A stretch of DNA of 64,000 nt from a virus (taxonomy: Duplodnaviria; Heunggongvirae; Uroviricota; Caudoviricetes). Below the pieces are notes generated by a model. That model was not told the DNA's origin. It did no database searches and worked only from the letters and a program-made list of their open reading frames with translations. The stretch lies in the IMG/VR virus record IMGVR_UViG_3300001605_000009; one strand, written 5' to 3'. Shown here piece by piece: positions 11,626 through 62,975 of the stretch; position 1 is the stretch's first letter; the number at the start of each line of letters is the position of its first letter. The position numbers and the translations under genes are program-made.

Positions 11626-14600
11626 TTAAAAGAATGCTAGAAATGCTCCTAACTTCTTTATAGCGCCAATAATAGACCCTGTTATATAACTGATTGATAA
11701 ATAATTAGGACTTGTTCCTGTAAAAGAAAGACCCGTATTATTCCCTCCATTCGTACTATTAGCTCCTACATTCCACGCTGTTGACTTTTTAAGAATCGCC
11801 GGAGTAGTGTTCGTAGAAGTTATAGTTACTAAGGAACTTGAATCCCCACTTATATTGAAACTACTAAATGTCTGAGTTGATCCACCTTCAAATTTTATAG
11901 TAGTAGGTTTCACTGTATTACTCATAGTATCAAAAGTATTGTTACCATAGATTGACAGAGTGCTTCTTTGTAACGTGGTAGAAGATGGAGTAACAGTAAA
12001 GTTATTATATGTCTGGTCACCTCCATAGAATTGGTATTCTACTGGTATTGAATAGGTAGTACATATGATATTGGCCGTGCCTTTATCTAATGTAAGATTA
12101 GTGGGATCGCTTATATCCCAACCAAATATTGGTATTAATGCAGAATACGCGCTCACATCTATTAAATATTGAAGATATGTAAGGTTATATGGTACTATAG
12201 TCCAATTACCAGACCCCATTATCAGGGCTCTACTTGAAGTGTAACTACTACTAAATTCTGGTACAGTAACATCATATCCATTAGCATTAAATGTTCCGGC
12301 CTTTAATATCATCCCTCCAGTAGTGTTCAGAGTAGCGCCATAAGAATAATAGGCGAGATTTATAGCACTACCTAGCTGATAAATTGCTCCTGGACAGTTG
12401 AATGTTAGAAACGCGCCACAAGCATTACTTGTAGTGTTGATAGTTAATGTCTTAGTTCCAGAGGTTGCCAAGAAATTAACAAAGCCAGTCAGAACAGCAG
12501 AGTTGTTAGTCATATTACCGTAGATATTAACTTTTGATGCCATATTGTACGTACCAGTGAATCCTGTATCGTTATAGTTACGAATAGAAGGTACTCCACC
12601 TGTACTAAATGAGATTATATCTGAACCAGCAGTAATATTTATATCAAAACAGGTAGTCTCTGTCATTCCAGGAGCAAATATAGTTCTAGTCCCCGTGCTT
12701 CCAGAATAAGTCAAATTCACAGTTGGTATACCTGTGTAATTAAAGTTCCCACCACTTACCTCCATATAAAGTATAGTACCGTTATTACCAGTAATATTTA
12801 TAGCACTACTACCGAATGCAATAGCTGGAAAGTCATATATAGAGGCAGATACAGCAGGCTGTAGCGAAGAAACTGTAGCAGTAAATCCATTCAAGTCTAG
12901 TGTACCAGTATAAATAGATACAGTACCACTACAAGTCAGCGCTGAGCCTAGCTTAGTTGTACCAGAATTAGTGTTATATACATTTATACCTGTAGGCCAT
13001 GTAACTCCTGCAGAAGTAATAGTTTGAGTAGCCCCACTTTTATTAAATGTTACTACTCCTGTTCCTGTTATTGTTAGTCCAGAGTATAGAGTGACATTTC
13101 CATATATATCAGGAGATGTTGTACCAATAGCTAAAGTAGAAGCTGTTGTTCTAGAAGAGTAATTTAAAGTACCAATGTTCCAGTTGGCATTTATTGTAAG
13201 CGTACTTGCAACACCCGTATTAGTGAATGTTGCAGTATCTTGAGCTAATGGGAAGTTAGCTACTGCAGGAGTACCCGCTGCTGTTGTTGCCCAAGCTGTT
13301 GCAGTCCAAAGAGAATTACCCAATAAGTTCCAATACACAGTTTTAGGAGTAGATGTGGTAATATTAGTGTTGTTTCCACAATCTCCAAGCCTTATTCCTG
13401 TCCAAGTACCTGCAGCTCCTGCAGCTGTAATATCCCTGAAGTCTACATCAGTAAGGGCAGATATTGCATTTGCTGTTATTGTTCTAGCAGTACCTTGAGT
13501 ATTAGATTGTAGGAAAGTTCTATAGATTGCTGACGTGCCGGCCCCAATAGTAAGTGTACCGTTGACAGTTTGATTACCTCCACCAAATATGACTTGACTA
13601 ATACCCACACTTCCAGTACGTCCAGCTATATTTAAATTATTGAAAGTATTAACTCCAGTAATATTAGCAGTGTTAATTGCTGTATTATTAAATGTTACAT
13701 TATAGTATGTTTTATCCCCGCCAGTGAAGGTAGGAGTAGTAGAAGTTAATACTATTGTAGAGGTACCGGCATTTATAGTATTTGTAGACAGTGCTTGCCA
13801 TGCCGTTCCAGTAGCGGATAGTGTCACTGTAGAACCATTTAAGTTTATAGTGGCATACTCACTTGCATTAATAGTTGTTGCGGATACAGAGTAGTTAGAA
13901 GTGTCAAGATTTCCTACAAGATTTATAGCATTAGTTGAGGTAAATGCTCCGCCCAATAACACTGTAGTTGATGGGCTGTAGGATGCTATCGCGATAGGAA
14001 ATGATTTTCCTGCAGTATTTAAGGTTTGTGTTTTGGTATACCCCAAAAAGGCTAACTGTCCTGTAAGTGTTGTTGGCGTTACACCCGTTCCTAGTATAAA
14101 ATCACTGTATACAAATTGAGTACTACTACCAAAAGCTAGCGTCATTACGGTTGTTCTGGCAGACATATTGATAGTACCCGTATTATATAGACCATCAAAG
14201 GTAACAGTAGTTGCTGCGCCAGTATTATCAAATATAGCAGTATCTTGAGCCAATGGAAAGTTATTTACAGCAGGAGTTCCACCAGAACTGGTGGCCCAAC
14301 CATTAGCAGACCAATTTACAGTTCCAGTTAGATTCCAATAGACAGTTTTAGAGGACTCAAATGTAATATTAGAGTTATTCCCACAATCACCAAGTCTGGT
14401 ACCAGACCAATTTCCTGAGGTACCTGCTACTACAATATCTCTGAAGTCAACATCTACTAATGAACTAATCGCAGCAACAGTTAGCGTGATTTGGGTATCA
14501 AACACCTGACTAAGTAGCCAAGTTCTGTATGCTGGACCAGTTCCTGCTCCTATATTAAGAGTTCCATTAATAGTCTGATTAGCATTAAATTGTAAATAAT

Positions 14601-17600
14601 TAACCCCAGTAACTGTTCTTCCAGCAATCGTAAGATTGTTAAATACATTGCTACCTCTAATACTATTAACGACTGATTCAGCGGAACCACCTGAGGTAAA
14701 ACTTACATTATAATAGGTTTGTTCGCCTCCATTAAATGATTGACTGGCAGCACTCAAGTTAATCGTTGATGTTCCACTTGATAAAGTAAGACCTGTTGGT
14801 ACCGTAATATCCCACCCACCAGAAGATAAAGTAATAGTTGAAGACCCCAAAGTCAACGATCTGGTATTACTATTACTACTAGAAACAGATCCTGCAGTAA
14901 CATTAAAGTTACTAGTGCTGAACGAGCCGTTAGTTAGCGTTAATGTGTATGTACTTAAATTGATAGCGTCAGCAAGAGTCCACTCTCCGCCAATACCATT
15001 GAATGTAATTGGACACCCCAATGCTTTACCACTAGAAGTGATTATTTTACCGGCAGATGTTGATGCAAATGTTCTCACACCTGCGCCAGCAGTAACAGTC
15101 ATGCCTGTTGATAACGTCAGATTACCGTAGATTGTAATGGCACTATTTGGCCAAGTACCCGCAAAACCAGTAAATACTAGATTTCTTACGTTTCCAGTAA
15201 CAGTAGTAGAGCTTGTTCCTGCGGTGATATTAAACGATACACTGTTAGATTCAGATGGAGAACCCGCGATAATAGTTCTAGCTGTTGCAGTAGCGTTAGT
15301 TACGTTTACAATAGGAGTTCCTGTTACTGTCATATTGTATACGTTTGTAGCATCCCATACTGTACCAGTCCCATTAAGAGTTAAGGAGCCATAATTAAAA
15401 GCTAAGGTTCTTGCGCTGTTTGAATTTGTTATAAAAGCAGGACATGAATGATTATTTCCATTCAAATCTAAATATCCAGCCGCAAGTCTTATAGTACTAG
15501 TAGAAGTAGTACCAGTTGATAACTGACCAGTAAGAGTCCATCGTCCAAACAGTCCATTAAAAACTATAGGGAATCCTAGGGTTTTTCCATTTGGATTAAT
15601 AGTATTACCAGTATATGTTGATAAGAATGAAACAGTATTCGTACCAGCAGCCACTGTCATTCCAGTTGATACAGTAAGACTTCCATAAATTCCTAACGCT
15701 ACATTAGTCCATGAGCCTGCAAATCCAGTGAAGTCTAGGTTTTTTATTCTGTTATTAGCAGTGAACGTAACAGGGCCAGTTCCTGCAGTGATATTAAAGG
15801 AAAAAGCATAATCTTCCGACCATACTCCGGCAGAGATCGTCCTAGTAAGAGATGTAACGGCAGTGACATCTACTCTTCTTAGGCCAGAAGTAGTTAAATT
15901 AGTTACTGTAGCAGTATTCCAAATAGTACCAGTTCCCTCTAGTTTTAAATACCCAGTAGACCCAAACATAATAGACCTAGTATTAGAATTACTAGATGAA
16001 AAGGAATTTAGAGATAAAGAGTACTCATTTAAATCAAGTGTACCATTAGTTAGCGTAAGCGACCCCATTCCTGTATTAGTAACATTTACTTTTATTGTAC
16101 TGTTGTAGGCGTCTATATTAGTAATATTTGTAGGTTGATAGCCTACTAATTGGATTTTATTTACTCCGATATAATTTAAAGTACAGCCGATACCCGCAGA
16201 AACACCCATCATATTATTATTACTTCCACACCAGTAAGTAGTAGTCGTGCCATAGGATAAGGTAAAAAGAGTCGATCTAGCGGTGGTATCATAAGTACCA
16301 ATATACCAATTCTGATCAAGAGTAAGAGTACTCCCAGCACTATTGTCATCCACAATACACGTATCTTGTACTAATGGAAAATTAGCAGCATCTGGGGTGC
16401 CACCAGAAGTCAATGCCCAGCCTGGTGAAGACCAGTTACTAACTCCTGGACGGTTCCAATATACGGTTTTTGGCGCTGCAAATGTGATGAGAGAGTTTCC
16501 TCCTGCGTCACCTAAACTAGTGCCGGACCATGTAGCTGTCCCAGATCCTGTAATGTAGCGAAAGTCTACATTCGAAAGGTCCGTTGAAGCTGCGGTAATA
16601 ACTCTAGGGCTGCCTGTTTGGTTACTTTGTAGTAATGTTCGATTTAGTAGTTCAGTACTAGATACAGTTAATGTACTAGTAATTACTACATCACCACCTA
16701 AATATGTAGGCGTTACTCCTACTGAGTCCCTGGCTGGGATATTTAAATTAATAAAAGTTATGGTAGGAGAAGGACTATTAACTGAACTACCAATACTATA
16801 TCCAAATGTATTTGCAGTAAAATTAACAGTACCAAAACTCTGCCCATCTGGAAGAAAGTTTACAATAGCCGCAGTATGCGTACAATTAATAGTAGATGAA
16901 ATACCACTAAAAGTTAGCTCTGTTGAGTTAAAAGTTATAGGTGACTGCCCATTTAGTGTTACAGTAGAAGTACCTAATGTTATTGATCTAATGTTAGAAT
17001 TACTAGACGAAATACTGCCCGCAGTTACATTATAGTTACCTGTGTCAAACGAACCCTTAGTGACTGTGATTTGATTCGTTCCAATATTCAACGCATCTTG
17101 CAGAGTCCACCCACCACCAACACCATCAAAAGTAGCAGGGCCGTTTAATGTGACGCCATTAGATGTAATGGTCTTACCTGTAGAAGTGGCTGCGAATGTA
17201 AGTGATGTATACGCGGCTACTGTTTGACCAGTTCCAAGAGTCAGGTTTCCATATATAGTACCCGCTGTTGGAATCCATGCTCCACTAAACCCAGTGAAGT
17301 CTAGATTCTTAAAGGTACTCGTGCTGGTTGATACGTTTCCTGTTCCGGCTGTGACATTTACAGATGCTTCAGAGAGTGCACCTGTGGTAATTGTTCTGGC
17401 TGTTGCTGATGAGTTAGTCAGATTGACTGTAGGGAACCCCGATATAGCTATAGAAGAGGTCGTATTGAATACTGTGCCAGTTCCCGATAATGATACAATA
17501 CCCGATGTACCAAAATTTAGTGTTCTAGCAGACAGACCAGTAGAAACGAATAATCCCGTTGTGAGTGTGAAGTTATTCAGGTTTAATGTACCAGAGTTTA

Positions 17601-18600
17601 ACGTGGTAGTTCTAGTCGAACCTACGGTAAACGCATCCTGAAGTGTCCATACACCTGTACCATTAAAGTTAATGGGAAAATCTAATAATTTACCATTGGT
17701 TGTAATTGTTCTACTGACATTTGCAAAAAATGTCCAGGCTCTTGTACCCGCAGTCAGTATCATAGTAGGGGATAATATTAAATTTCCATATATGCTTATA
17801 GCAATATTACTTACAGTACCGCTAAATCCAGTAAAGTTTAAATTGTTCACGCGATTGTCTGCGGTGAAAGTAACAATATCTGTTCCGGCAGTAAAGTTAA
17901 AACTTAATTCAGTAGCATTCGCTCCCGCATTTATAGTTCTTGTCCCAGTAGATCCAGAATAAGTGCAGTTAATTGTCGGTGTTCCAGAAACTTTTAATCC
18001 AGTTTGAGTAGCTGCATCAAAAATAGTTGTACCAGAGCCAGTAAGCGTTAAGTCTCCAGTACCAAAGTTAAATGTTCTCGTAGTAGATCCGGAGATATTG
18101 GCTGTTAACGCGGTAAATTTATTAGTGCCTATCGATAGAGTACCCACCGTAAGGGTAAGTGTACTGCTCGTAGAAAATGCCCCGTTTAGGGTAACTGTAA
18201 TAGAGTTGCCATTTACTACTACAGGACTACTAATTATTGAAGTACCAGTATTACATATAGCAGTGGTACCATTGAAGGATAGTGAGCCTGTGTTTGTCCA
18301 ATTAATAGTTCCAGAAATAGTAAGTCCAGAAGTAGTCACAGATATATTACTTGATCCATTAAAAGTCAAAGTGCCTGCTGATGGGTTTGCCATATTAATA
18401 CCAAGAACTGATGTAGTAGCAGTTCTTGTTACTGTGTAGGATGCTCCAGACCCTGCAACATTAGACTCAGAGTCAAAAATGGCAACATCGGCAGTAGTTG
18501 GAACGGCAGCACCTCCAGTTCCTCCAGATGTAAGTGACCAATTAGTTGTGTTCGTAGCATCCCAGGTACCTGTGCCGCCTACCCAATATTTATTAGCCAT
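11626..18600 (-). CDS. giant repetitive Ser/Thr/Gly/Asn-rich structural protein (2324 residues), likely a tail fibre or adhesin with beta-helix-like modules
   Basis: A single ORF of 2324 residues. The module KTVYWNxxGxxxWSxxGWAxxxGGTPxxxNFPLxQDT occurs four times and the module NL(D/V)FTGF(S/A)G(T/A)W at least five times. Composition is low-complexity beta-rich. The gene lies next to small fibre-like genes. Confidence 0.8.
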   Translation of the reverse strand: MANKYWVGGTGTWDATNTTNWSLTSGGTGGAAVPTTADVAIFDSESNVAGSGASYTVTRTATTSVLGINMANPSAGTLTFNGSSNISVTTSGLTISGTINWTNTGSLSFNGTTAICNTGTSIISSPVVVNGNSITVTLNGAFSTSSTLTLTVGTLSIGTNKFTALTANISGSTTRTFNFGTGDLTLTGSGTTIFDAATQTGLKVSGTPTINCTYSGSTGTRTINAGANATELSFNFTAGTDIVTFTADNRVNNLNFTGFSGTVSNIAISIYGNLILSPTMILTAGTRAWTFFANVSRTITTNGKLLDFPINFNGTGVWTLQDAFTVGSTRTTTLNSGTLNLNNFTLTTGLFVSTGLSARTLNFGTSGIVSLSGTGTVFNTTSSIAISGFPTVNLTNSSATARTITTGALSEASVNVTAGTGNVSTSTSTFKNLDFTGFSGAWIPTAGTIYGNLTLGTGQTVAAYTSLTFAATSTGKTITSNGVTLNGPATFDGVGGGWTLQDALNIGTNQITVTKGSFDTGNYNVTAGSISSSNSNIRSITLGTSTVTLNGQSPITFNSTELTFSGISSTINCTHTAAIVNFLPDGQSFGTVNFTANTFGYSIGSSVNSPSPTITFINLNIPARDSVGVTPTYLGGDVVITSTLTVSSTELLNRTLLQSNQTGSPRVITAASTDLSNVDFRYITGSGTATWSGTSLGDAGGNSLITFAAPKTVYWNRPGVSNWSSPGWALTSGGTPDAANFPLVQDTCIVDDNSAGSTLTLDQNWYIGTYDTTARSTLFTLSYGTTTTYWCGSNNNMMGVSAGIGCTLNYIGVNKIQLVGYQPTNITNIDAYNSTIKVNVTNTGMGSLTLTNGTLDLNEYSLSLNSFSSSNSNTRSIMFGSTGYLKLEGTGTIWNTATVTNLTTSGLRRVDVTAVTSLTRTISAGVWSEDYAFSFNITAGTGPVTFTANNRIKNLDFTGFAGSWTNVALGIYGSLTVSTGMTVAAGTNTVSFLSTYTGNTINPNGKTLGFPIVFNGLFGRWTLTGQLSTGTTSTSTIRLAAGYLDLNGNNHSCPAFITNSNSARTLAFNYGSLTLNGTGTVWDATNVYNMTVTGTPIVNVTNATATARTIIAGSPSESNSVSFNITAGTSSTTVTGNVRNLVFTGFAGTWPNSAITIYGNLTLSTGMTVTAGAGVRTFASTSAGKIITSSGKALGCPITFNGIGGEWTLADAINLSTYTLTLTNGSFSTSNFNVTAGSVSSSNSNTRSLTLGSSTITLSSGGWDITVPTGLTLSSGTSTINLSAASQSFNGGEQTYYNVSFTSGGSAESVVNSIRGSNVFNNLTIAGRTVTGVNYLQFNANQTINGTLNIGAGTGPAYRTWLLSQVFDTQITLTVAAISSLVDVDFRDIVVAGTSGNWSGTRLGDCGNNSNITFESSKTVYWNLTGTVNWSANGWATSSGGTPAVNNFPLAQDTAIFDNTGAATTVTFDGLYNTGTINMSARTTVMTLAFGSSTQFVYSDFILGTGVTPTTLTGQLAFLGYTKTQTLNTAGKSFPIAIASYSPSTTVLLGGAFTSTNAINLVGNLDTSNYSVSATTINASEYATINLNGSTVTLSATGTAWQALSTNTINAGTSTIVLTSTTPTFTGGDKTYYNVTFNNTAINTANITGVNTFNNLNIAGRTGSVGISQVIFGGGNQTVNGTLTIGAGTSAIYRTFLQSNTQGTARTITANAISALTDVDFRDITAAGAAGTWTGIRLGDCGNNTNITTSTPKTVYWNLLGNSLWTATAWATTAAGTPAVANFPLAQDTATFTNTGVASTLTINANWNIGTLNYSSRTTASTLAIGTTSPDIYGNVTLYSGLTITGTGVVTFNKSGATQTITSAGVTWPTGINVYNTNSGTTKLGSALTCSGTVSIYTGTLDLNGFTATVSSLQPAVSASIYDFPAIAFGSSAINITGNNGTILYMEVSGGNFNYTGIPTVNLTYSGSTGTRTIFAPGMTETTCFDINITAGSDIISFSTGGVPSIRNYNDTGFTGTYNMASKVNIYGNMTNNSAVLTGFVNFLATSGTKTLTINTTSNACGAFLTFNCPGAIYQLGSAINLAYYSYGATLNTTGGMILKAGTFNANGYDVTVPEFSSSYTSSRALIMGSGNWTIVPYNLTYLQYLIDVSAYSALIPIFGWDISDPTNLTLDKGTANIICTTYSIPVEYQFYGGDQTYNNFTVTPSSTTLQRSTLSIYGNNTFDTMSNTVKPTTIKFEGGSTQTFSSFNISGDSSSLVTITSTNTTPAILKKSTAWNVGANSTNGGNNTGLSFTGTSPNYLSISYITGSIIGAIKKLGAFLAFF

Positions 18601-25003: not shown

Positions 25004-25397
25004 GGTACTTTTCCTTATTATCAGAAGAGAAATAAATACGCTCTTCTTCTTCAGAGAGAGGTCTACTCATTGGAGTATTCTTCTCGTCCCTCCAACACAG
25101 ATGGTTGGTATTCTCAAAAGGTATAAGCCAAGGTGTCATTAATTTCTCCGTGTAAGTGCGGCGGGTTCTGTTTCTAGGTTCCGCCAGACCCAAGAAGAAT
25201 CAAGCTACTAGAGCTAGACCTTCAAATGCTGAGTTATCGTTAGCATTTACTTTTTGTGGCTCTTTGCCAGTCAATAGTCTCGGCGTTCCCTATTACACGA
25301 AAATCGATCCCTGGTCGCCCCCATCATAGAATATCGGACTGTGTAGGTACCAATACACGAGACACTGATAAACGGTCAGGCTCTTCCCAATATTCTA

Positions 25398-25425
25398 TGG
25401 TGGAGGCGGCGGGAATTGAACCCGC
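25398..25425 (-). ncRNA. tRNA/tmRNA 3'-end-like element (T-arm, acceptor 3' strand and CCA) with no matching 5' half
   Basis: The minus strand reads GACGCGGG-TTCAATT-CCCGCCGCCTCCACCA. This matches the 3' end of bacterial tmRNA and tRNA closely. No complementary GGAGGCG was found within plausible distance. Confidence 0.4.
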
Positions 25426-25454
25426 GTCTTTTCGTCTTTATTGTCGGCTGTCAG

Positions 25455-25497
25455 CGACTATATACTCGTTATAACAAAAGTTACAACAAAAGTCAAG
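25455..25497 (-). promoter_or_regulatory. sigma70 promoter (TTGACT, 17-nt spacer, TATAAC) firing into the tRNA/tmRNA-like fragment
   Basis: The minus strand reads aaaaatatttcTTGACTtttgttgtaacttttgtTATAAC, about 45 nt upstream of the fragment. Confidence 0.5.
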
Positions 25498-55461: not shown

Positions 55462-55500
55462 TTTTATATTGCAAAAGCGTTGCAAAGTCAGAGGAAATCA

Positions 55501-55818
55501 ATGGAAGAAAAACTAGACAAAATTATATCACTACTAGAGGAGTTAGTTTATAACTCTAAACACTATAACGGATATGTTAAATGGTCCTACGAACAGGAAG
55601 AATTTCTAGATATTATGTTTACAGCAGGGCACGATGTTCCAGAATTAATAAAGCTCATTAAAGAAAAATTTGGTATTGATAGATCAGCCGGGGCCATATG
55701 CTCTAGACTAAGTAAGCTTGGACTAAATAAGCCTATTGAAAAGAAACGAGTCATTGAAAAGAAAGAGTCTACTACTATAGAAGATATTTTTGACCTACTA
55801 CCGTGGGAAGTAGAATGA
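55501..55818 (+). CDS. helix-turn-helix protein (plus-strand member of the paralog family)
   Basis: The ATG at 55501 has a ribosome-binding site upstream. Motif IKEKFGIDRSAGAICSRLSKLGL. Confidence 0.5.
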   Translation: MEEKLDKIISLLEELVYNSKHYNGYVKWSYEQEEFLDIMFTAGHDVPELIKLIKEKFGIDRSAGAICSRLSKLGLNKPIEKKRVIEKKESTTIEDIFDLLPWEVE

Positions 55819-56324
55819 GCGTAGATAATATTAGAAACAATCCGCGATGGACCGCAGAAGAAGAAGAGAAACTGTGTAGGGCTGTATCCGCTTACTCGGA
55901 TTGGGACGAAGTCCCATACGCTAGTATTCAGGACAAATACTTCCCACACCGATCTGTGTCAGCTCTGCAAGCTAAGTATCTTCGTACTAAAGATAAATAT
56001 TCCTTCTATCAGTGGAGTGATAACGCATCTAAAAATGTGTTCAGAATGTACCTGGATGGGGCCTCCATCGGTCAAATTCACACTAAGATGATAGAAGTGG
56101 GACTAACTGGAGCGAGCCCACGAGATATTGAGCTAGAGATAGAAAGGCTTCGAGGGATTCTCTCTAGTAAGGTTAGGACTTATGCCGAAGAGCATGGACT
56201 TAGGCCAACTAAGAGATATTCGCTGGAACAGCTCCAAGCTTTCGCCAAATTCAAAGCTCCCGAGGGCAACTCCTTCGCAGCTAAAGCCGCTATTGCAGCG
56301 CTTCATGAGATTATTAATGGCTAG
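55803..56324 (+). CDS. Myb/SANT-like helix-turn-helix repeat protein
   Basis: WTAEEEEKL and a helix-turn-helix motif of the paralog-family type. Confidence 0.45.
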   Translation: MGSRMSVDNIRNNPRWTAEEEEKLCRAVSAYSDWDEVPYASIQDKYFPHRSVSALQAKYLRTKDKYSFYQWSDNASKNVFRMYLDGASIGQIHTKMIEVGLTGASPRDIELEIERLRGILSSKVRTYAEEHGLRPTKRYSLEQLQAFAKFKAPEGNSFAAKAAIAALHEIING

Positions 56325-56637
56325 AGGCTGGACACCACAAGAGGATGAATTACTACTTAGACTTCGAGACGAAGGTCTCACAGCTAGGGAGATTGCTCTT
56401 AGACTAGAGCGCAGTGCTGGAGCAATCAGAATGAGAGCTTCACTACTAGCTGAGGACAAGCAGAAACGCTGGACTGAAGCTGATAAGCAGCTAGTATTTC
56501 AACTTAAATCTGAAGGACATACTAACAAGTTTATTGCTATAAAACTGGGCAGAACAGCATCTTCAATTAGTACGTTTGTCTCTCGCAACTGGCATGTTGA
56601 ACAGGCTTCAACCGATGCTAGGAAAAATAATTCTTGA
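56317..56637 (+). CDS. Myb/SANT-like helix-turn-helix repeat protein (start set to the ATG at 56317)
   Basis: Motifs WTPQEDELLLRL, IALRLERSAGAIRMRASLL and IAIKLGRTASSISTFVSRNW. Confidence 0.45.
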   Translation: MARGWTPQEDELLLRLRDEGLTAREIALRLERSAGAIRMRASLLAEDKQKRWTEADKQLVFQLKSEGHTNKFIAIKLGRTASSISTFVSRNWHVEQASTDARKNNS

Positions 56638-56663: not shown

Positions 56664-57112
56664 CAAACTATGTTAAGTTAGATTGCTTTATATTTACTTT
56701 TATTCTGTTATTGACCTGATCGCGACGGTCCGAGCGTCTCGGATCCGTCGCGTATTCAGGGAGACTCAATACAGACTTTATATCGTGTCTAACTTGTTTT
56801 GCTACAGCCCTTAACGGGCTGGAATTGCGTTTAAAATCCGCTACAAAAATTATGGCTATTTTAAGCTCTTTCTACAAGGCTGTATCGGCTTTTTGATAAC
56901 TTTCTCTTCATTCATCATAAACTTGATCCAACCTAACTCTAGCCGCTCGCTTTAGCCTCGATTCAGCCTGCTGTAGCTCGTTAAAATGTCGTTAGTTGCG
57001 CACGAAGTGCGCTGGATTTAGCTTCAGGCACCAGCTCAACCAAAATAATTTTTTGGCGCTTTTGCTTGGGTGCCAACACAAAAAAGGCCGTACCAAACTG
57101 GCACAGCCTCAT

Positions 57113-57154
57113 AAAAACCGAAAAAAGCGGGTCTAACTTTCGTTAGGCCCGCTT
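57113..57154 (-). terminator. rho-independent terminator (bidirectional, stronger on the minus strand)
   Basis: AAGCGGGTCTAAC-TTTCG-TTAGGCCCGCTT with a T6 tract on the minus strand. Confidence 0.65.
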
Positions 57155-57161
57155 AAGTTGT

Positions 57162-57380
57162 TTAATCTGCAAAAATCTCGTAAGAAAGCTCAAAATCTGC
57201 GTCAAGCACCATCTCACCTACTAGCAGTTCCTCGTCCTCGGAGAGGACTAGCACGATGTCAAAAAATCCAGCAGCACTGTGCACAACCTGGATCGCCTCG
57301 CGATCATACTCTAGGAAAAGGTCTGGAATAGCTTGCGCATACTGCGTCAAGATCGTCTCAATATCGTCGCGAATGTTCAT
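57162..57380 (-). CDS. small acidic protein
   Basis: A 72-residue Asp/Glu-rich ORF. Confidence 0.4.
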   Translation of the reverse strand: MNIRDDIETILTQYAQAIPDLFLEYDREAIQVVHSAAGFFDIVLVLSEDEELLVGEMVLDADFELSYEIFAD

Positions 57381-57575
57381 TGCTTATCTCCGTTGCTTGA
57401 AACTCATTCTAGCCGTTTTAGTGCGCGAAGTCAACATGAAAAAAATAGTTCTTGACACCAGTTTGCACCTGGTTGGCGAACGAAGTTCGCAAGCTTGGTA
57501 AAAATAGTTCTTGACACAAGCATGGCCTAAAATAGATGTTGACTTCGCACTAGCCGGCGCAGGATTTTTGGCGCT

Positions 57576-57620
57576 ACAAAAATAACCGCCACACCTTTGC
57601 AGGGGGCGGTTATTTTTCGT
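57576..57620 (-). terminator. bidirectional rho-independent terminator
   Basis: ATAACCGCC-loop-GGCGGTTAT with T-tracts on both strands. Confidence 0.6.
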
Positions 57621-57768
57621 ACTAGCCGATCCAACGGCAGGCTCTGTTCATTCTAGACTGCGTAAAACAGGCACTGGGAGGGATCCGGTCGTGTACTGAT
57701 ACTAGGAGGGGTGAGGAGTGTCGTTGCTACTCAATGCCTCACCTTATTGTAGCGTTTCCTAGTATTGC

Positions 57769-58080
57769 TTAGGCACTCAGTTTCGAACGAAGTTCGACGA
57801 GTACCAACTTAGGAGCCTTCTCAAGACCATCGAGGCTGCGACCAACGAGGGCCGAAATCTCAGCTACAATGTCTTCCTTGCTCTCGATCTTACCGCCAGT
57901 CTTGCTGGTCTTGACCTTACCACGGTAGGAGCCGAGGCGGACTGCCTTAGCACGCACCGAGCGCACGTCCTTACCAAATTCAGCGGCGAGCATTTCTGCC
58001 GTAGCGTTGTCGATAACCTCGAATTCAGCGAGGCGGGCTTCTTGAGCGTCGGTGTAGTTCTTGATGATGGTCTTGGTCAT
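57769..58080 (-). CDS. helix-turn-helix paralog family member
   Basis: LAAEFGKDVRSVRAKAVRLGSYRGKVKTSKTGG aligns along its whole length with the ORF at 60752..61075. Confidence 0.55.
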   Translation of the reverse strand: MTKTIIKNYTDAQEARLAEFEVIDNATAEMLAAEFGKDVRSVRAKAVRLGSYRGKVKTSKTGGKIESKEDIVAEISALVGRSLDGLEKAPKLVLVELRSKLSA

Positions 58081-58148
58081 AAATGATCCTTTTCTTGGGT
58101 TGATTTAGTATTTATAGTTGGTTTGGGGTTGAATGTCAACTACTATTT

Positions 58149-58244
58149 TCAGAAGTCCTGGTACATGTCCCAGACGCGGCTGGTGTCGTAGTCGTCTTCG
58201 AGGGCGTCTTGGTCTTCAACGAAATCGTCTTGATACTGATCCAT
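58149..58244 (-). CDS. 31-residue highly acidic mini-protein (candidate DNA mimic or anti-restriction protein)
   Basis: MDQYQDDFVEDQDALEDDYDTSRVWDMYQDF, with the ribosome-binding site gaaggaagga upstream. It is not in the ORF track. Confidence 0.4.
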   Translation of the reverse strand: MDQYQDDFVEDQDALEDDYDTSRVWDMYQDF

Positions 58245-58278
58245 ATTTTGTTTCCTTCCTTCTCGCTCTTGATGTACT

Positions 58279-58310
58279 CTTATAACCGGAAAGCGGTCGG
58301 CGGTCAACAT
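58279..58310 (-). promoter_or_regulatory. sigma70 promoter (TTGACC, 17-nt spacer, TATAAG) carrying the conserved box CTCTTGATGTACTCTTATA
   Basis: The box recurs upstream (on the minus strand) of the genes at 59215..59940 and 60752..61075. Confidence 0.5.
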
Positions 58311-58339
58311 AAACTTTTAGCAGTGCTGGTCGGCTTTGG

Positions 58340-58380
58340 TTATTTTTTAACTTGACTTTGCATTGATTTGCCACTATAAT
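58340..58380 (+). promoter_or_regulatory. consensus sigma70 promoter (TTGACT, 17-nt spacer, TATAAT) firing into a 470-bp ORF-free segment
   Basis: ttaacTTGACTttgcattgatttgccacTATAATtttggcgctgcgcgcc. Confidence 0.6.
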
Positions 58381-58716
58381 TTTGGCGCTGCGCGCCTTAC
58401 CAGACCTTCTTCGAGGTCATTTTCAGCACACGTAAAAATTGAACTTGCACTAGGTCGTCGCGGCGCTAAGGGGCTCGTTATAAGTTGCTCCCGCACTCTT
58501 CCTAGCAGGTAACTTTCGCACTAGCATTGCTTTCGCACTGGCGCAGGAACGCTGTTCTCGTTTTGTTCTCGGTTTGTTCCATGTGATGATATATCGTTAC
58601 GCTCATTTAACATAACATGCTTTCCCTGATTTAAGCTGCCTAAGTCATTGATATTACTAGATAAAACCGTTTAACATAATGCATTTTATCAAACCCATAT
58701 TTATTTTTCCTAGCTC

Positions 58717-58745
58717 TTGACAAATGTGTTGAAACCTGTTAAAAT
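58717..58745 (+). promoter_or_regulatory. island plus-strand promoter cassette (TTGACA, 17-nt spacer, TAAAAT, then CGGCGC), copy 1
   Basis: cTTGACAaatgtgttgaaacctgtTAAAATcggcgc. A TG dinucleotide at -15/-14 gives an extended -10 element. Confidence 0.6.
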
Positions 58746-58932
58746 CGGCGCTAGGCCATTTTCGGCGCTGTCACATCCATTATAGCAGGTTTTAATGGGC
58801 TTGTCAATAGGAAAAATCGCCTGTGGATAAATATATTCTAGCGCGGCCTGACCGAACAAAACGGGAACAAAAATTTCGGCGCATTCAGCGCGCTATTTTC
58901 AGTATAGCATATGCCAAAAATGCTGTCAAGCG

Positions 58933-58973
58933 AAAAAAATGCTCCAGAACCAGTCTGGAGCATTTTCTTTTTC
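58933..58973 (-). terminator. bidirectional rho-independent terminator
   Basis: ATGCTCCAGA-ACCAGT-CTGGAGCAT flanked by an A6 tract and a T tract. Confidence 0.75.
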
Positions 58974-59175
58974 AGTCCTTCACTTCAACGTCGATAGTAA
59001 AGGATAGTTCGACTTCTTTATATAACTTGACGTTATAAACACTTACGCCATTTTTTACTTCCTCTTTAATGTCGTCTAGTATGTCTGCTAGTGACTCACT
59101 ATAGTAACTGCCAGTCACACCGCCAGTAATGCCCAAGATTTCAGCATAAAACATAATACTTAATCCTTTTTCCAA
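58972..59175 (-). CDS. hypothetical small protein
   Basis: ORF followed by a terminator. Confidence 0.4.
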   Translation of the reverse strand: MEKGLSIMFYAEILGITGGVTGSYYSESLADILDDIKEEVKNGVSVYNVKLYKEVELSFTIDVEVKD

Positions 59176-59214
59176 AGTTGGGGCAAGTAATCATTACTTG
59201 CCCCGTTTCTGTTT

Positions 59215-59940
59215 TTACTTGACCGTGAAGTGATCCCGAACGGCGAAGTCACGATAGTTGTATGGCGGCGGATTCATATAGTCAGACGGTGAAGTATTTT
59301 TGACTAATGCCGTAAGAATAGGCACCTCGTAATACTTGGCGTCTTCTAGTGCCGTATGTGGTTCGTCTGGCAATCCCGCGCCTAGCAGAAATTTTGCCAT
59401 AACATCGGCATTAGTTTGCACGCCCATATGCCCTGTTTTACTTGTGCGATTGCCGAAATAGTGATTCTGCAAAGCAAAGTTAAGAAAAGCGCGAGTATTG
59501 CCCCACTTAGCAGCGGCAGCGTGCCACAAACAAAATTGACTAGGGAACAAATCATTGGCAATAATGCCAGACTTGTTCATCTTATCACGGTCGAAAGCCA
59601 AGTTATAGGCTGTCATAACAGGCGAGTACTTAGCGGCAATCTTGCTAAGTACGCGATTAACAGCACCAACGCTTGCCAATACTCGCGTTCCGTCTTGTAG
59701 CATTTGCTCATAAGCGGCGTAGCGCGCGGGCAGGCTTTCCTTGCTGAAAACATCGCCCTTATCCCCGAAAACATGAAACAGAGGGTGCGCCTCTTTATCG
59801 CTGAAAAAGTCGCCAATTAGAATGCCCATCTCATAATGGATGTTTCCTTGCTTGTCGGAAACAACGATGCCCATATCCGCGACCATATTGGTTTGCGTTG
59901 TTTCCGTGTCAATTGTCAAGAAAAACTTTTTCTTACCCAT
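59215..59940 (-). CDS. DEDDh 3'-5' exonuclease (DnaQ/RNase T-like)
   Basis: Exo I FLTIDTETT, Exo II YNLAFDRD and Exo III HTALEDA motifs. Confidence 0.75.
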   Translation of the reverse strand: MGKKKFFLTIDTETTQTNMVADMGIVVSDKQGNIHYEMGILIGDFFSDKEAHPLFHVFGDKGDVFSKESLPARYAAYEQMLQDGTRVLASVGAVNRVLSKIAAKYSPVMTAYNLAFDRDKMNKSGIIANDLFPSQFCLWHAAAAKWGNTRAFLNFALQNHYFGNRTSKTGHMGVQTNADVMAKFLLGAGLPDEPHTALEDAKYYEVPILTALVKNTSPSDYMNPPPYNYRDFAVRDHFTVK

Positions 59941-59998
59941 TTTTCGTTCCTTTGCCCTTTGGGTCTTTCAGGAGAGCCTTGCGCCCTCTTGATGCTCT

Positions 59999-60045
59999 CT
60001 TATACCTAGCGAATCGTTGCCCGTCAAGAAAAACTTTTCCACAAT
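59999..60045 (-). promoter_or_regulatory. sigma70 promoter (TTGACG, 17-nt spacer, TATAAG) with an upstream DnaA-box-like TTTTCCACA
   Basis: The minus strand reads TGTGGAAAAgtttttcTTGACGggcaacgattcgctaggTATAAG. Confidence 0.55.
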
Positions 60046-60607: not shown

Positions 60608-60636
60608 TTGACAAACCCTAGCGCGTCTGCTAAAAT
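60608..60636 (+). promoter_or_regulatory. island plus-strand promoter cassette, copy 3
   Basis: aTTGACAaaccctagcgcgtctgcTAAAATcggcgcc. Confidence 0.55.
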
Positions 60637-60704
60637 CGGCGCCTCCAGCCGGATTTTTTGGCGCTAATACAATTATAACAGAATCAAAAGGCTTTGTCAA
60701 GCCC

Positions 60705-60751: not shown

Positions 60752-61075
60752 TTATGCGGAAAGCCGTTCCCGAAGGATTTGCAAGGCCAGCTTAGGGGCC
60801 TTTTCCAGTCCGTCCATATTTTTCTGGACAAGTGCCGCAATGTCTGCAACAATGTCTTCCTTGGTTTCGACTGGGCCGCCAGTCTTGCTGGTCTTTTCCT
60901 TAGCCTTATAAATGCCCATGCGAGTTGCCTTAGCGCGAATTGAGCGAACGTCCTTGCCGAGCTTTTCGGCCAATTCGATTGCCTTATCATTGTCAATGAT
61001 GCCAGCGGCCAAGAGAACAGCCTCTTGTTCAGCCGAGTAGTTCTTGACGGTTTCGGTTTTTGCAGTAGCAGCCAT
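60752..61075 (-). CDS. helix-turn-helix paralog family member
   Basis: LAEKLGKDVRSIRAKATRMGIYKAKEKTSKTGG is co-linear with the ORF at 57769..58080. Confidence 0.55.
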   Translation of the reverse strand: MAATAKTETVKNYSAEQEAVLLAAGIIDNDKAIELAEKLGKDVRSIRAKATRMGIYKAKEKTSKTGGPVETKEDIVADIAALVQKNMDGLEKAPKLALQILRERLSA

Positions 61076-61390: not shown

Positions 61391-61598
61391 GTGCTCTGTA
61401 ATCAAGTATAGATTGCAATTCGATTATTTCCCGCAATGTCCTTTGTTTCTCCATGTTTGCAGTATAAAGATCAACAATGATTGACGAAATCAGATCCTCT
61501 TGTAGTGCTAGTTTGTCCTCTGCACAGTCAAGCTGCAATTCTAGTGGTTCCTCGTTCATGCCGCTAACTTTCCGTTTTGCTTTACAGCGTTGAAACAA
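61386..61598 (-). CDS. hypothetical small protein
   Basis: ORF with a terminator at its end. Confidence 0.4.
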   Translation of the reverse strand: MFQRCKAKRKVSGMNEEPLELQLDCAEDKLALQEDLISSIIVDLYTANMEKQRTLREIIELQSILDYRAH

Positions 61599-62029
61599 GT
61601 AATACCGATTGAAAGCATTGCGTCAATTACTTTCAAGTTATCGTCAAACATAATTGCGCAAGCATCCTTTGCACAAGAAAAGCCTTCGCCCGCAAAGTAT
61701 GCTTCTAGCAGATCAACTTTCAATTGCGCGTCCCCGCGCATATCGTTAACGCCGCGCGACAAGAAAACATCATGTTCTAGTCCATGCTTTTCAAGGAACA
61801 AATGGTTGCTTTCATGTGGCGAACGCGCCGTGCAAATGATAACCGTATGGCCAGCCTTTTTAATCTGTTTCATGCTTTTTGCAAGTGGCAAAAGCGAGTC
61901 ACCCATAATTTTCTCATGGGTATTATTCTCCAGCCAGTGCGCAAGATTAAGCGAGCCATCGGGCAACGTGTTTTGACGGTGGCTTGAGTCGATAACCGTG
62001 CCATCCAAGTCGAAAATTACATAAGCCAT
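61556..62029 (-). CDS. HAD-superfamily 5'-nucleotidase (deoxyribonucleoside 5'-monophosphatase-like, comparable to T5 dmp)
   Basis: HAD motif I FDLDGTV at the N-terminus. The gene is small and located in a pre-early-like island. Confidence 0.65.
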   Translation of the reverse strand: MAYVIFDLDGTVIDSSHRQNTLPDGSLNLAHWLENNTHEKIMGDSLLPLAKSMKQIKKAGHTVIICTARSPHESNHLFLEKHGLEHDVFLSRGVNDMRGDAQLKVDLLEAYFAGEGFSCAKDACAIMFDDNLKVIDAMLSIGITCFNAVKQNGKLAA

Positions 62030-62197: not shown

Positions 62198-62635
62198 ATC
62201 TATGGGGCAAGAGGACTGGCAGCTCTTGCTTGCCCACCAAACCGTTTCCGGTCTTGACAGCCGATTAAAAGTGCGAATGTCAAGTAAAATTGGCTCTCCC
62301 GAATGTTCGCTAGTCGCCAGCTTTTCCACCTTGTCAAGCCAGCGATTAGAGTATTCTGCGTCAGCTAATATGTATTCAATTGGGCAGCCGTCAAACATAT
62401 CGTATTTGAATGTTTTAGAGAATGCAATAACGCTAGAGCGATCAAAAGAAAAGCGCGCCTTTGGTGGGTTTACTAGCCCAAACCAACGCCTAGTGCTAGA
62501 ACGCTTTTCTTCTGATTTGACCCAGCTATTGACTTGTTTGTCAGTTTCTACAGTGACTTGATGCACAATTTCAAGGCGGCAATCCTCTACCATTGCCAGA
62601 AGTGAAGCCTTAGTGACTGGAACAAAACCCTTCAT
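62195..62635 (-). CDS. hypothetical protein
   Basis: ORF only. Confidence 0.4.
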   Translation of the reverse strand: MKGFVPVTKASLLAMVEDCRLEIVHQVTVETDKQVNSWVKSEEKRSSTRRWFGLVNPPKARFSFDRSSVIAFSKTFKYDMFDGCPIEYILADAEYSNRWLDKVEKLATSEHSGEPILLDIRTFNRLSRPETVWWASKSCQSSCPID

Positions 62636-62835
62636 GCATAATTCCTTTGAATAAAGCGATCACCAAAACGATCAAGAGCGAGAATCTGCCAATCATCACT
62701 TTCATAGTCGATATCTATATCGTAGTCAAGCGGTTCTGCAACAAAAAACAGATCACAATCCCATGCTTCCGTGCTAGCATTATCTGCTAAGTGCCAGTCA
62801 AGAGGTTCGTTCATTGCTTCATTCCTTGTTTCCAT
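62632..62835 (-). CDS. small acidic protein
   Basis: A 67-residue Asp/Glu-rich ORF containing DYDIDIDYESDDW. Confidence 0.4.
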   Translation of the reverse strand: METRNEAMNEPLDWHLADNASTEAWDCDLFFVAEPLDYDIDIDYESDDWQILALDRFGDRFIQRNYA

Positions 62836-62882: not shown

Positions 62883-62910
62883 TTGACAAAATAAAATAAC
62901 CTGCTAAAAT
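62883..62910 (+). promoter_or_regulatory. island plus-strand promoter cassette, copy 6 (16-nt spacer)
   Basis: cTTGACAaaataaaataacctgcTAAAATcggcgc. Confidence 0.5.
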
Positions 62911-62975
62911 CGGCGCATCTGAGCCAAAAAATTCGGCGCTACTACCATTATAGCATGAAGCTAAATTGTTGTCAA

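Follow-up and report, generated by a model that had tools for sequence, protein, structure and literature searches.

The viral DNA analysed here (IMG/VR virus record IMGVR_UViG_3300001605_000009), a stretch of 64,000 nucleotides referred to below as the window, contains toward its right end a long region that lacks genes and is centred on positions 58245-58716. A preliminary description of this segment, made from the letters alone, presented it as 470 bp free of open reading frames (ORFs), driven by a consensus σ70 promoter, and preferred to see in it a regulatory RNA of ~300 nt. The lack of genes is real: no ORF of at least 60 aa is present across 58245-58716 on either strand, the longest being 53, 52, 49, and 48 aa. 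However, the ORF-free DNA continues to ~58970, giving it a length of ~725 bp rather than 470 bp. The segment is the centre of this conserved non-coding control region (58245-58970), the right edge of which is a hairpin terminator (58936-58966) and the leftmost ~65 bp of which (58245-58307) are the promoter and 5' leader of a minus-strand ORF of 31 aa, whose ATG is at 58244. All of the genes that neighbour the segment are on the minus strand. The segment is very probably a cis-acting DNA element rather than a gene for an RNA or a peptide, and it contains a module whose core of ~92 bp (58605-58696, minus strand) resembles a duplicated site for the recombinases XerC and XerD.

Relatives of the window are found among the metagenomic contigs of IMG/VR and the JGI metagenomes (loci are designated here by numbers such as L001), and these share with the window the order of the genes around the segment. 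A megablast search with positions 57000-60000 gave no match in INPHARED, that is, no close relative among isolated phages. By blastn, positions 58882-58505 align to L001, L006, and L010 at 68-70% identity, and the region is conserved in at least nine related metagenomic phages. An alignment of 10 sequences resolves this conservation into discrete blocks of 10-28 bp, which are separated by variable, indel-rich spacers and whose spacings keep the helical phase. The blocks comprise TG-extended promoter hexamers, GGCGCC motifs, two copies of a 23-bp box, and a 15-bp element between these copies, together with ACG(A/T)TATATCAT, GCGCCAGTGCRAAAG..AGTGCRAAAGTTAC (which holds the CTTTCGCACT repeats), and a hairpin followed by the promoter flagged in the preliminary description. 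Conserved blocks with variable spacers are the pattern expected of protein-binding DNA, not of RNA or coding sequence. The alternative raised earlier, that the segment might be a cis element, is thus borne out insofar as it is conserved as discrete DNA blocks, but an origin or a packaging site, the functions then proposed for it, is not clearly indicated.

The most conserved features of the region, which the preliminary description overlooked, are the direct repeat TTATGTTAAA (58605-58615 and 58669-58679) and the element between its two copies. These features belong to the module, for which the evidence is computational and which consists of the following parts:

58669-58696, minus strand: dif-like site A, GGGTTTGATAA / AATGCA / TTATGTTAAAC (XerC arm / centre / XerD arm), a palindrome
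58639-58653, minus strand: IHF-like element TATCAATGACTTAGG, midway between sites A and B and 15 bp from the XerD arm of site A
58605-58632, minus strand: dif-like site B, AAATCAGGGAA / AGCATG / TTATGTTAAAT, with a perfect XerD arm

The identity of the repeat emerged from a full-text search with its invariant 12-mer ATTATGTTAAAT, which led to a survey of proteobacterial dif sites in which this sequence is the XerD half of dif (PMC2731167), the site at which bacterial chromosomes are resolved. In E. coli, dif reads GGTGCGCATAA TGTATA TTATGTTAAAT, in which an XerC arm, a 6-bp centre, and an XerD arm follow one another (PMC2731167). The XerD arm of site A (TTATGTTAAAC) agrees with TTATGTTAAAT at 10 of 11 positions and that of site B at all 11. 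On the XerC side, the inner dyad of site A is TTGATAA, while that of site B has decayed to AGGGAA in the window; the XerC arm of site B is intact (TGATAA) in L001, L006, L024, L033, and L036. In general form, the XerC arms of the module end in (T/C)GATAA, and XerC arms ending in GATAA are natural in Burkholderia, Myxococcus, and Novosphingobium.

Viral and metagenome collections were scanned for the module with the pattern 'TTATGTTAA-N(15-35)-ATCAATSACTTAGG'. Among 26 phage sites, every one has a centre of exactly 6 bp between ...ATAA and TTATG..., and the XerD arm is ~100% conserved (the site A arm being required by the search pattern). Within the XerC arm, the inner ATAA shows 88-100% conservation and the outer part varies; the centre is variable as well (46-85%). 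In addition, an intact XerD arm at site B is present in 11 of 12 modules. This profile matches the one described for dif, in which the XerD arm is better conserved than the XerC arm, inner positions better than outer ones, and the centre varies between lineages (PMC2731167). Since the XerC arm and the whole of site B lie outside every search pattern, their agreement with dif constitutes independent evidence.

We built a position weight matrix (PWM) from 43 published proteobacterial dif sites, with 400 shuffles as the null. Site A scores 15.6 bits, the best value in the 64-kb window. Site B scores 9.3 bits in the window, because its XerC arm has decayed there, and 12-25 bits in most relatives (lower in L024, L032, and L035). 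A same-strand pair like A and B arises in none of the 400 shuffles. Across the module-bearing loci, the dif-like boxes of the module give the top PWM score or scores in 10 of 11 (in L024, one of the two top scores is offset by 8 bp), and modules of other phage families reach 24-31 bits, compared with a median of 31.2 and a minimum of 8.9 for chromosomal dif. Among the window ORFs of at least 150 aa, none has a Pfam match to a tyrosine recombinase. Taken together, these comparisons make it likely that the module core is a genuine Xer-type site, to which XerC and XerD would bind.

Between the two sites, the IHF consensus WATCAANNNNTTR is matched by TATCAATGACTTA at 58653-58641. This is a consensus match only, and the consensus is not enriched in the window (3 occurrences against 3.9 expected); consequently, its weight comes from its invariant position in all modules. 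There, a distance of 14-15 bp always separates the XerD arm of site A from the start of (A/T)ATCAATSACTTAGG, and the gap in the scan pattern is always 17-18 bp. The element is near-invariant in every phage family that carries the module, its conservation extends past the IHF consensus, and extra copies of it occur in L006, L033, and L028. Sites A and B are direct repeats, with a start-to-start distance of 64 (once 63) bp in the T5-like family to which the window belongs and 74 bp in two other phage families, a difference of one helical turn. The L029 group and L018 carry only site A and the IHF-like element, which suggests a minimal unit made up of a dif-like core and, on the XerD side, the element.

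One relative, L033 (OGWF01000187.1), has two complete modules (5198-5238 and 7226-7266) that lie 2 kb apart in direct orientation; one of these sits between converging promoters, not behind a reverse one. Together, the intervening genes would make up a cassette with Xer-type sites on either side.

Other assignments for the conserved boxes were considered by eye. A Fur 7-1-7 box has the same half-sites but the wrong spacing; direct repeats of the ArcA, CpxR, or CtrA type, as well as the NrdR box, Fis sites, and matS, were dropped. A σ54 -24/-12 element in a promoter spacer has a spacing that is off by 1, and a KOPS sequence after site B is in the wrong orientation, with a 7/8 match. An opposite-strand σ70 promoter, TTGAT(A/T)-18-TAACAT, is possible but weak, and it leaves the conservation outside the hexamers unexplained.

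The module is also present in unrelated phage contigs of 37-59% GC (L016/L020/L029, L018, and L028/L031), always in long non-coding regions; these phages lack the promoters of the window type. Among the 50,697 isolated phage records of INPHARED, a search at BLAST sensitivity returned only chance matches of 26 nt, in Lactococcus phages. In PLSDB, full-length matches of 28-32 nt to site A are dominated by Sphingomonadales (Sphingobium 36, Sphingomonas 11, Novosphingobium 10, and others), where the sites occur as one copy per plasmid in unannotated intergenic DNA. Between the XerC arm of the phage, (A/C)AGACTGATAA, and that of these sphingomonad plasmid sites there is hardly any difference. On Rhizorhabdus dicambivorans p1, the site reads AAGACTGATAA TATATA TTATGTTAAAT (L039 3000-3028; NZ_CP023450.1 91190-91217) and scores 30.5 bits, and dozens of other Sphingomonadales plasmids, GC-rich and conjugative, have such dif-like sites in A+T-rich intergenic DNA. 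The plasmid sites are probably multimer-resolution sites that have escaped annotation.

These matches bear on the host as well. A beta- or gammaproteobacterium was the initial guess, given the exact XerD arm TTATGTTAAAT, but was dropped after the sphingomonad plasmid matches and an alpha-type transfer-messenger RNA (tmRNA) gene had been found; chromosomal dif arms in alphaproteobacteria differ from TTATGTTAAAT. (The tmRNA gene, at 25109-25490 on the minus strand, is of the permuted two-piece kind and specifies the tag peptide ANDNSAFEGLALVA.) The plasmid matches, the alpha-type tmRNA, and the GTTC-N7-GTTC motifs described below render a Sphingomonadales-like host plausible, and the phage probably infects an alphaproteobacterium of this type.

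The window has a G+C content of 42% and 14 tRNA genes in three clusters (9.2-11.5, 33.3-35.1, and 36.0-36.5 kb). It encodes a family A DNA polymerase, a DnaB-like helicase, a primase, an NAD-dependent ligase, ThyX, and NAMPT, as well as a NUDIX/NMNAT protein, RNA ligases, and a T5orf172-domain protein. The nearest relatives of the DNA polymerase are those of T5-like Demerecviridae (44% identity), and a minus-strand ORF at 61556-62029, ~3 kb from the non-coding region, specifies a 157-aa HAD phosphatase that is homologous to Dmp, the pre-early 5'-deoxyribonucleotidase of T5 (34% identity, E = 1e-18). Because of this polymerase and this dmp homologue, 57-64 kb can be regarded as the counterpart of the first-step-transfer (pre-early) region of T5. 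Judged by its genes, the phage is a distant relative of T5, and the non-coding region lies within the pre-early, first-step-transfer-like part of its genome. In T5 itself, the pre-early region is located in the terminal repeat and has three conserved untranslated repeat regions (bioRxiv 10.1101/866236; T5 annotation). Placing a terminal repeat by means of the ends of the related contigs, which are collapsed metagenomic assemblies, was uninformative, as synteny runs on into early genes.

Several other genes of this part of the genome deserve mention. Two paralogous small genes on the minus strand, at 57769-58080 and 60752-61075 (103 and 107 aa, with no Pfam match), are kept in all relatives, each with its own promoter and terminator, and flank the non-coding region at some distance. 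Very acidic small ORFs lie on the minus strand at 58149-58244, 62632-62835, and 57162-57380 and may encode pre-early proteins of the DNA-mimic type; the first of these, the 31-aa ORF (MDQYQDDFVEDQDALEDDYDTSRVWDMYQDF), has a strong ribosome-binding site in front of it, and relatives have a different small ORF in its place. Genes for helix-turn-helix (HTH) proteins resembling Myb or σ70 Region 4 come directly after the region in L010 and L032 and are found at 55480-56637 in the window. The neighbouring non-coding stretch, 57381-57768, has a tandem 21-bp repeat, AAAAATAGTTCTTGACAC(C/A)AG (57441-57461 and 57500-57520), with a spacing of 59 bp and two plus-strand -35-like boxes, and, near it, the palindrome CGAACGAAGTTCG in two exact copies (57477-57489 and 57784-57796). 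Farther away, a minus-strand ORF of 2324 aa (11626-18600), which has no Pfam match at E <= 0.001, lies between a tRNA cluster and the early genes. In L001 (IMGVR_UViG_3300021963_000083), just past the right end of the region homologous to the window, positions 1096-2324 (minus strand) encode homologues of CsgG (E = 1e-50) and CsgF (E = 4e-24), which are components of the curli secretion channel and whose genes adjoin an M15/GH19 endolysin.

The module is surrounded by promoters, repeats, and protein-box motifs, listed here from left to right:

58279-58307, minus strand: forward promoter TTGACC-17-TATAAG, which serves the acidic 31-aa ORF (58244-58149)
58352-58380, plus strand: the flagged promoter, TTGACT-17-TATAAT, whose spacer TTGCATTGATTTGCCAC is also conserved
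58384-58418, plus strand: predicted transcript start of the flagged promoter, with GGCGCTGCGCGCC, a small hairpin (GACCT-TCTTCG-AGGTC), and then ATTTTC
58513-58542, plus strand: direct repeats of CTTTCGCACT (AGTGCGAAAG on the minus strand), within a conserved block
58553-58579, plus strand: TGTTC three times with an 11-bp period (GTTC-N7-GTTC-N7-GTTC)
58583-58600: GTGATGATATATCGTTAC, an imperfect palindrome, from an inverted-repeat search and the alignment
58717-58745, plus strand: reverse promoter P3r, TTGACA-17-TAAAAT followed by CGGCGC, antisense to the local genes
58746-58769: CGGCGCT-N11-GGCGCT, between the converging -10 boxes of P2 and P3r, conserved in relatives
58779-58807, minus strand: forward promoter P2, TTGACA-17-TATAAT, a 12/12 match, TG-extended, face to face with P3r
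58822-58830, minus strand: perfect DnaA-box consensus TTATCCACA, 14 bp upstream of the P2 -35 box
58854-58868, minus strand: GTTCCCGTTTTGTTC, which fits GTTC-N7-GTTC, conserved in L001, L006, L033, and L035
58901-58929, minus strand: forward promoter P1, TTGACA-17-TATACT, TG-extended and pointing leftward, into the region
58936-58966: bidirectional hairpin terminator with a 13-bp stem and T-runs on both sides, which ends the upstream minus-strand gene 58972-59175
-35 boxes starting at 58352, 58717, 60062, 60608, 61209, 62123, 62883, and 63833, plus strand: the members of a reverse promoter family

The flagged promoter is present as described, with an 11/12 match, and so is the GC palindrome GGCGCTGCGCGCC at 58384-58396. 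However, a near-consensus promoter is not special here, given that 18 of the 27 matches of at least 11/12 in the window fall in 54-64 kb; between 55 and 62 kb, 22 promoter-like sites, on both strands, compare with 10.4 expected. The preliminary description also overlooked two consensus promoters on the minus strand that fire into the segment, P2 (58807-58779) and P1 (58929-58901). The hexamers of P1 are conserved, with a variable spacer, in L001, L006, L010, and L035, while P2 and the ATTTTTCCTA upstream of it are strongly conserved in all relatives. The promoter of the 31-aa ORF (-35 at 58307-58302, -10 at 58284-58279) has homologues of the form TTGACC-17-TATAAA in L001, L006, L035, and L036. 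The predicted start sites of P2 and P3r are ~20 bp apart. Such face-to-face pairs of consensus promoters occur three times in the window (58717-58807, 60608-60700, and 62883-62975), with CGGCGC...GGCGCT between the -10 boxes; their predicted starts are ~20 bp apart, two RNA polymerases could not sit on a pair simultaneously, and the layout is kept in relatives.

The flagged promoter and P3r belong to a family with the form of an A/T-rich tract, TTGACA-17-TA(T/A)AAT, 0-4 nt, and GGCGC. There are eight members in the window, all on the plus strand and antisense to the local genes, three of which face a consensus forward promoter. A further 31 distinct copies are found in eight relatives, again antisense except for 2 of the 6 copies in L003. 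(rRNA and tRNA promoters under stringent control have GCGCC as their discriminator, directly after the -10 box.) Over 35 bp that include the spacer, the flagged promoter shares 97% identity with L001 12174-12208, and additional copies are present in L001, L006, L007, and L009; the hexamers of this predicted promoter are kept in the homologous copies. The relatives also keep a hairpin after it, with another sequence (TTAACC-AAAT-AGGTTAA and an A/T run). In 35 of 58 distinct family copies from the window and relatives, the first 60 nt of the predicted transcript fold far better than shuffles, because the hairpin that terminates the upstream gene lies directly in the path of these transcripts; the flagged copy, unlike these, folds weakly (z = -0.7). 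The reverse promoters could produce short antisense RNAs like OOP, or could serve as collision or insulator elements.

The repeats that were reported for the segment are likewise found. CTTTCGCACT occurs twice (58513-58525 and 58530-58542), in a block that leads in relatives to another reverse promoter (L001 11283-, L010 10301-, L035 10638-), decayed in the window. Just past site B, ACG(A/T)TATATCAT is conserved, and it is duplicated in L001 and L032. The 11-mer TTCGCACTAGC does have two copies in the window (0.01 expected), but the second lies at 57544-57554, not at 57533 as had been given (11 bases off). The repeat reported as GTTCTCG/TTTGTTC, two copies of TGTTCTCG(T/G)TT at 58553-58574, is the triple TGTTC listed above. 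It also forms a weak hairpin with a T-tract (a terminator-like site, 58539-58554), and homologous GAAC-N7-GAAC sequences are present in L010, L036, and L035. This arrangement recalls the direct repeats of response regulators, but it is on the XerD side of the dif-like sites. With the DNA around GTTCCCGTTTTGTTC it makes an inverted repeat (left arm 58553-58579, right arm 58854-58872) of 16-19 nt that is 89-94% complementary. GTTC-N7-GTTC occurs four times in the window against 1.3 expected, with three of the four in this region, and corresponds to the alphaproteobacterial LexA-box pattern, as known from the Caulobacter consensus (PMC12700426). The LexA-like box GTTCCCGTTTTGTTC sits at about +26 to +40 from P1, over no -35 or -10 box, and the Caulobacter consensus may not be that of the host.

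At the position of the DnaA box, L010, L036, and L035 have TTTTCCACA. The degenerate form TTWTCCACA occurs eight times in the window against 1.3 expected, six of these in 58.8-63.3 kb (58822-58830 on the minus strand and 60035, 60580, 61182, 62096, and 63256 on the plus strand), mostly 14-20 bp upstream of a promoter -35 box. The boxes do not form a cluster: the region has one consensus box, and the other TTWTCCACA copies are scattered over separate intergenic promoter modules.

The reading that we somewhat favour is that of a cis-acting Xer-type recombination or binding module set within a promoter hub. In the mechanism that we infer, XerC and XerD of the host would occupy both dif-like sites, and a sharp IHF-type bend would fold the direct repeats back into the antiparallel arrangement needed by a tyrosine-recombinase tetramer. 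This would create a self-contained, 'res-like' Xer site that works without accessory proteins, in which crossover would take place at one site, the other acting as its architectural partner; recombination would be independent of FtsK and would prefer two copies on one molecule. The second site and the bend would then take the part played by the accessory sequences of cer and psi or by DR1 and DR2 of the Tn4430 IRS. Among its uses, we would put first the cyclisation of a terminally redundant linear genome or the resolution of its multimers, which would fit a location in a T5-type terminal repeat but which, taken by itself, we regard as possible and rather doubtful. Module occupancy and transcription probably interact, because the opposing promoters, the inverted GTTC-N7-GTTC pair, and the DnaA box surround the module.

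Comparison with known systems shows what is shared and what is not. Chromosomal dif, like the phage sites, has 28 bp, made up of an 11-bp XerC arm with an inner (C/G)ATAA, a 6-bp centre, and the 11-bp XerD arm TTATGTTAAAT (PMC2731167). In both cases, the sites lie in low-GC non-coding DNA, and their conservation is highest in the XerD arm and toward the inside of both arms. Unlike dif, the phage sites are duplicated in direct repeat 64 bp apart and accompanied by a conserved IHF-like element, have centres such as AAGATA and ATGGCA instead of the usual TGTATA, show no sign of an involvement of FtsK/KOPS, and have PWM scores that are lower than most. The IMEX sites of CTXphi, VGJphi, TLCphi, gokushoviruses, and tailless Vibrio prophages are also phage-borne dif mimics, which use host XerCD with no phage integrase. 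However, the known cases are small single-stranded DNA phages or tailless phages that lysogenise at dif and have a single site or, in CTXphi, an inverted pair, whereas the genome here is that of a large tailed T5-like phage with tandem direct sites and no detected integrated copies. The loxP site of P1 can, from the redundant ends, circularise the injected linear genome and resolve dimers through Cre. The likeness to it is in the proposed function; P1 encodes its own recombinase, whereas Xer would be supplied by the host. The plasmid sites cer (ColE1) and psi (pSC101) resemble the module in being Xer cores on an extrachromosomal replicon, and they work without FtsK and only as direct repeats in cis. 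They depend on accessory DNA of ~180 bp at the XerC side, to which PepA binds together with ArgR or ArcA; in the phage, the additions consist of another Xer site plus an IHF-like box, placed on the XerD side. Reading 58697-58900 by eye, without a formal scan, revealed no ARG-box palindrome. (The role of PepA at ColE1 is described in PMC2655662.) In the IRS of Tn4430, acted on by TnpI, and in the res sites of Tn3 and gamma-delta, a crossover site with adjacent recombinase-binding repeats gives resolution selectivity without host accessory proteins (PMC2847244). The recombinases there are different and there is no sequence similarity; an architectural role for the second dif-like site and the bend is proposed here by analogy. 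The untranslated regions and injection stop signal of the T5 left terminal repeat, finally, are likewise large, conserved, repeat-rich non-coding DNA among pre-early genes, in a genome with related replication genes, dmp, DnaA-box motifs, and pre-early promoters. There is no sequence similarity between the two, T5 has 7-8 DnaA boxes in inverted-repeat pairs, and a scan of its left terminal repeat found no dif-like site (best PWM score 4.8 bits); the function of the T5 regions is itself still a hypothesis.

Several other explanations must be weighed. Near-consensus promoters face the segment from both sides, so that its transcription is very probable, and an RNA embedded in a Xer site has a precedent in cer of ColE1, which contains the promoter for the small RNA Rcd. 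Even so, a regulatory RNA of ~300 nt, whether read rightward from the 58352 promoter or leftward from P2, is the least probable of the alternatives and can hardly be maintained. Rfam gave nothing in the segment when the whole window was searched at the gathering threshold, and a best E-value of 2 when 57300-59100 was searched at an E-value threshold. Neither the predicted plus-strand transcript of the flagged promoter (58387-58716; minimum free energy z = -0.52 against shuffles) nor the predicted minus-strand transcript from P2 (z = +0.75) has excess stability, and RNAalifold on the conserved core of nine related sequences predicts no base pair on either strand. The conservation is block-like with frequent indels, and the flagged promoter, as a generic repeated element whose antisense family members mostly read into nearby hairpins, does not speak for an RNA gene of its own. 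Conservation is likewise missing from the small ORFs (30, 34, 40, and 49 aa), the L001 counterparts of which start at homologous ATGs and end after 4-9 codons. An origin of replication, in which the DnaA box, an IHF bend, iteron-like repeats, and an A+T-rich stretch would be activated by the flanking promoters in the manner of the transcription-primed origins of T7 and T4, would account for the perfect DnaA box at 58822-58830, the enrichment of TTWTCCACA, the IHF consensus match, the A+T-richness of 58580-58720, and the DnaA-like boxes that accompany the module in L018 and L028/L031. We nevertheless hold it to be improbable: the window has only one DnaA box near the module, DnaA-like boxes belong to a promoter-associated repeat that is present at many intergenic sites, and the supposed iterons are exact halves of dif. 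In addition, the GC skew is dominated by transcription direction and has no switch here, and the T5 origins map to about mid-genome, outside the pre-early region. An equally small chance is given to an IMEX-type attachment site, by which the phage or a passenger element would integrate at host dif through host XerCD. The dif-like sites, the fact that no phage integrase was found in the window, and the occurrence of the module in unrelated phages fit this idea, and exploitation of Xer by phages is documented (PMC5357621, PMC9226527, PMC7062461, PMC12715192). Yet an integrated copy would preserve 'TTATGTTAA-N17-ATCAATSACTTAGG', which has 0 matches in 185,579 species genomes (one per species), and in the same genomes no host dif with the phage-type arm and centre was found, the single match to that pattern being a chance one in coding DNA of an archaeal metagenome-assembled genome. 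The gene content is, moreover, that of a lytic T5-like phage.

A hub for transcription control or insulation is also unlikely, if less so than an origin or an attachment site. In such a hub, the boxes would be operators, or XerCD and IHF would form a non-recombining roadblock that balances the converging pre-early promoters; alternatively, the DNA might impose a pause during entry like the injection stop signal of T5. The density of promoters on both strands in 55-62 kb and the three face-to-face pairs speak for it, as do the constant position of P2 ahead of the module and the placement of one L033 module between converging promoters. The three boxes are centred at about -72, -108, and -147 from the P3r start, in the manner of an upstream activating region, the module has GTTC-N7-GTTC and DnaA-box motifs on its flanks, genes for Myb/σ70 Region 4-like HTH proteins are near the region in L010, L032, and the window, and the untranslated repeat regions of the T5 terminal repeat have been proposed to act via host DnaA. 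What a hub leaves unexplained is the complete dif layout (arms, 6-bp centre, and dif-like variability), the match of the XerC arm to sphingomonad plasmid sites, and the presence of the module in unrelated phages without these promoters; the T5 left terminal repeat, as noted, has no dif-like site. The Xer-type module is confronted with difficulties of its own. Site A alone is marginal, as 17 of 400 shuffles reach 15.6 bits, scores in the T5-like family (9-20 bits) are well below those of chromosomal dif, and the decay of the site B XerC arm means that the window copy may be partly defunct. Because the search pattern required the site A XerD arm and the IHF-like element, their conservation is partly built in. 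The IHF-like 15-mer is far more conserved than usual IHF sites, which hints at another protein, and a literature search found no IHF-assisted Xer site. Free recombination between direct sites 64 bp apart would delete the DNA between them, and the absence of the module pattern from the species genomes counts here as well. Finally, T5-type phages are lytic and are not known to require Xer.

Plasmids, filamentous phages, gokushoviruses, and tailless prophages are known to use host XerC and XerD; literature searches found neither Xer sites in large lytic-type or T5-like tailed phages nor a tandem dif-like module with a fixed IHF-type element. If the Xer-type module functions in the way suggested, some T5-like phages would handle their linear, terminally redundant genome with a recombinase borrowed from the host, and the accessory architecture of this Xer site would be a second core site and a bend rather than PepA with ArgR or ArcA. 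More speculatively still than the use suggested above, the module could represent a new class of elements that exploit Xer: a dif-like core with an IHF-type element at a fixed distance of 15 bp on the XerD side, usually duplicated in helical phase, present in large tailed T5-like phages and shared horizontally with unrelated ones, which would recruit XerCD without FtsK for circularising or resolving terminally redundant genomes or for swapping pre-early cassettes between copies of the module. A working module would also supply the sequence handle TGATAA-N6-TTATGTTAAAT-N15-WATCAATSACTTAGG for searches of metagenomes and for guesses at hosts (here Sphingomonadales-like). The proposal would also provide a testable function for a long conserved non-coding region of the kind that has been a long-standing puzzle of T5-type pre-early DNA.

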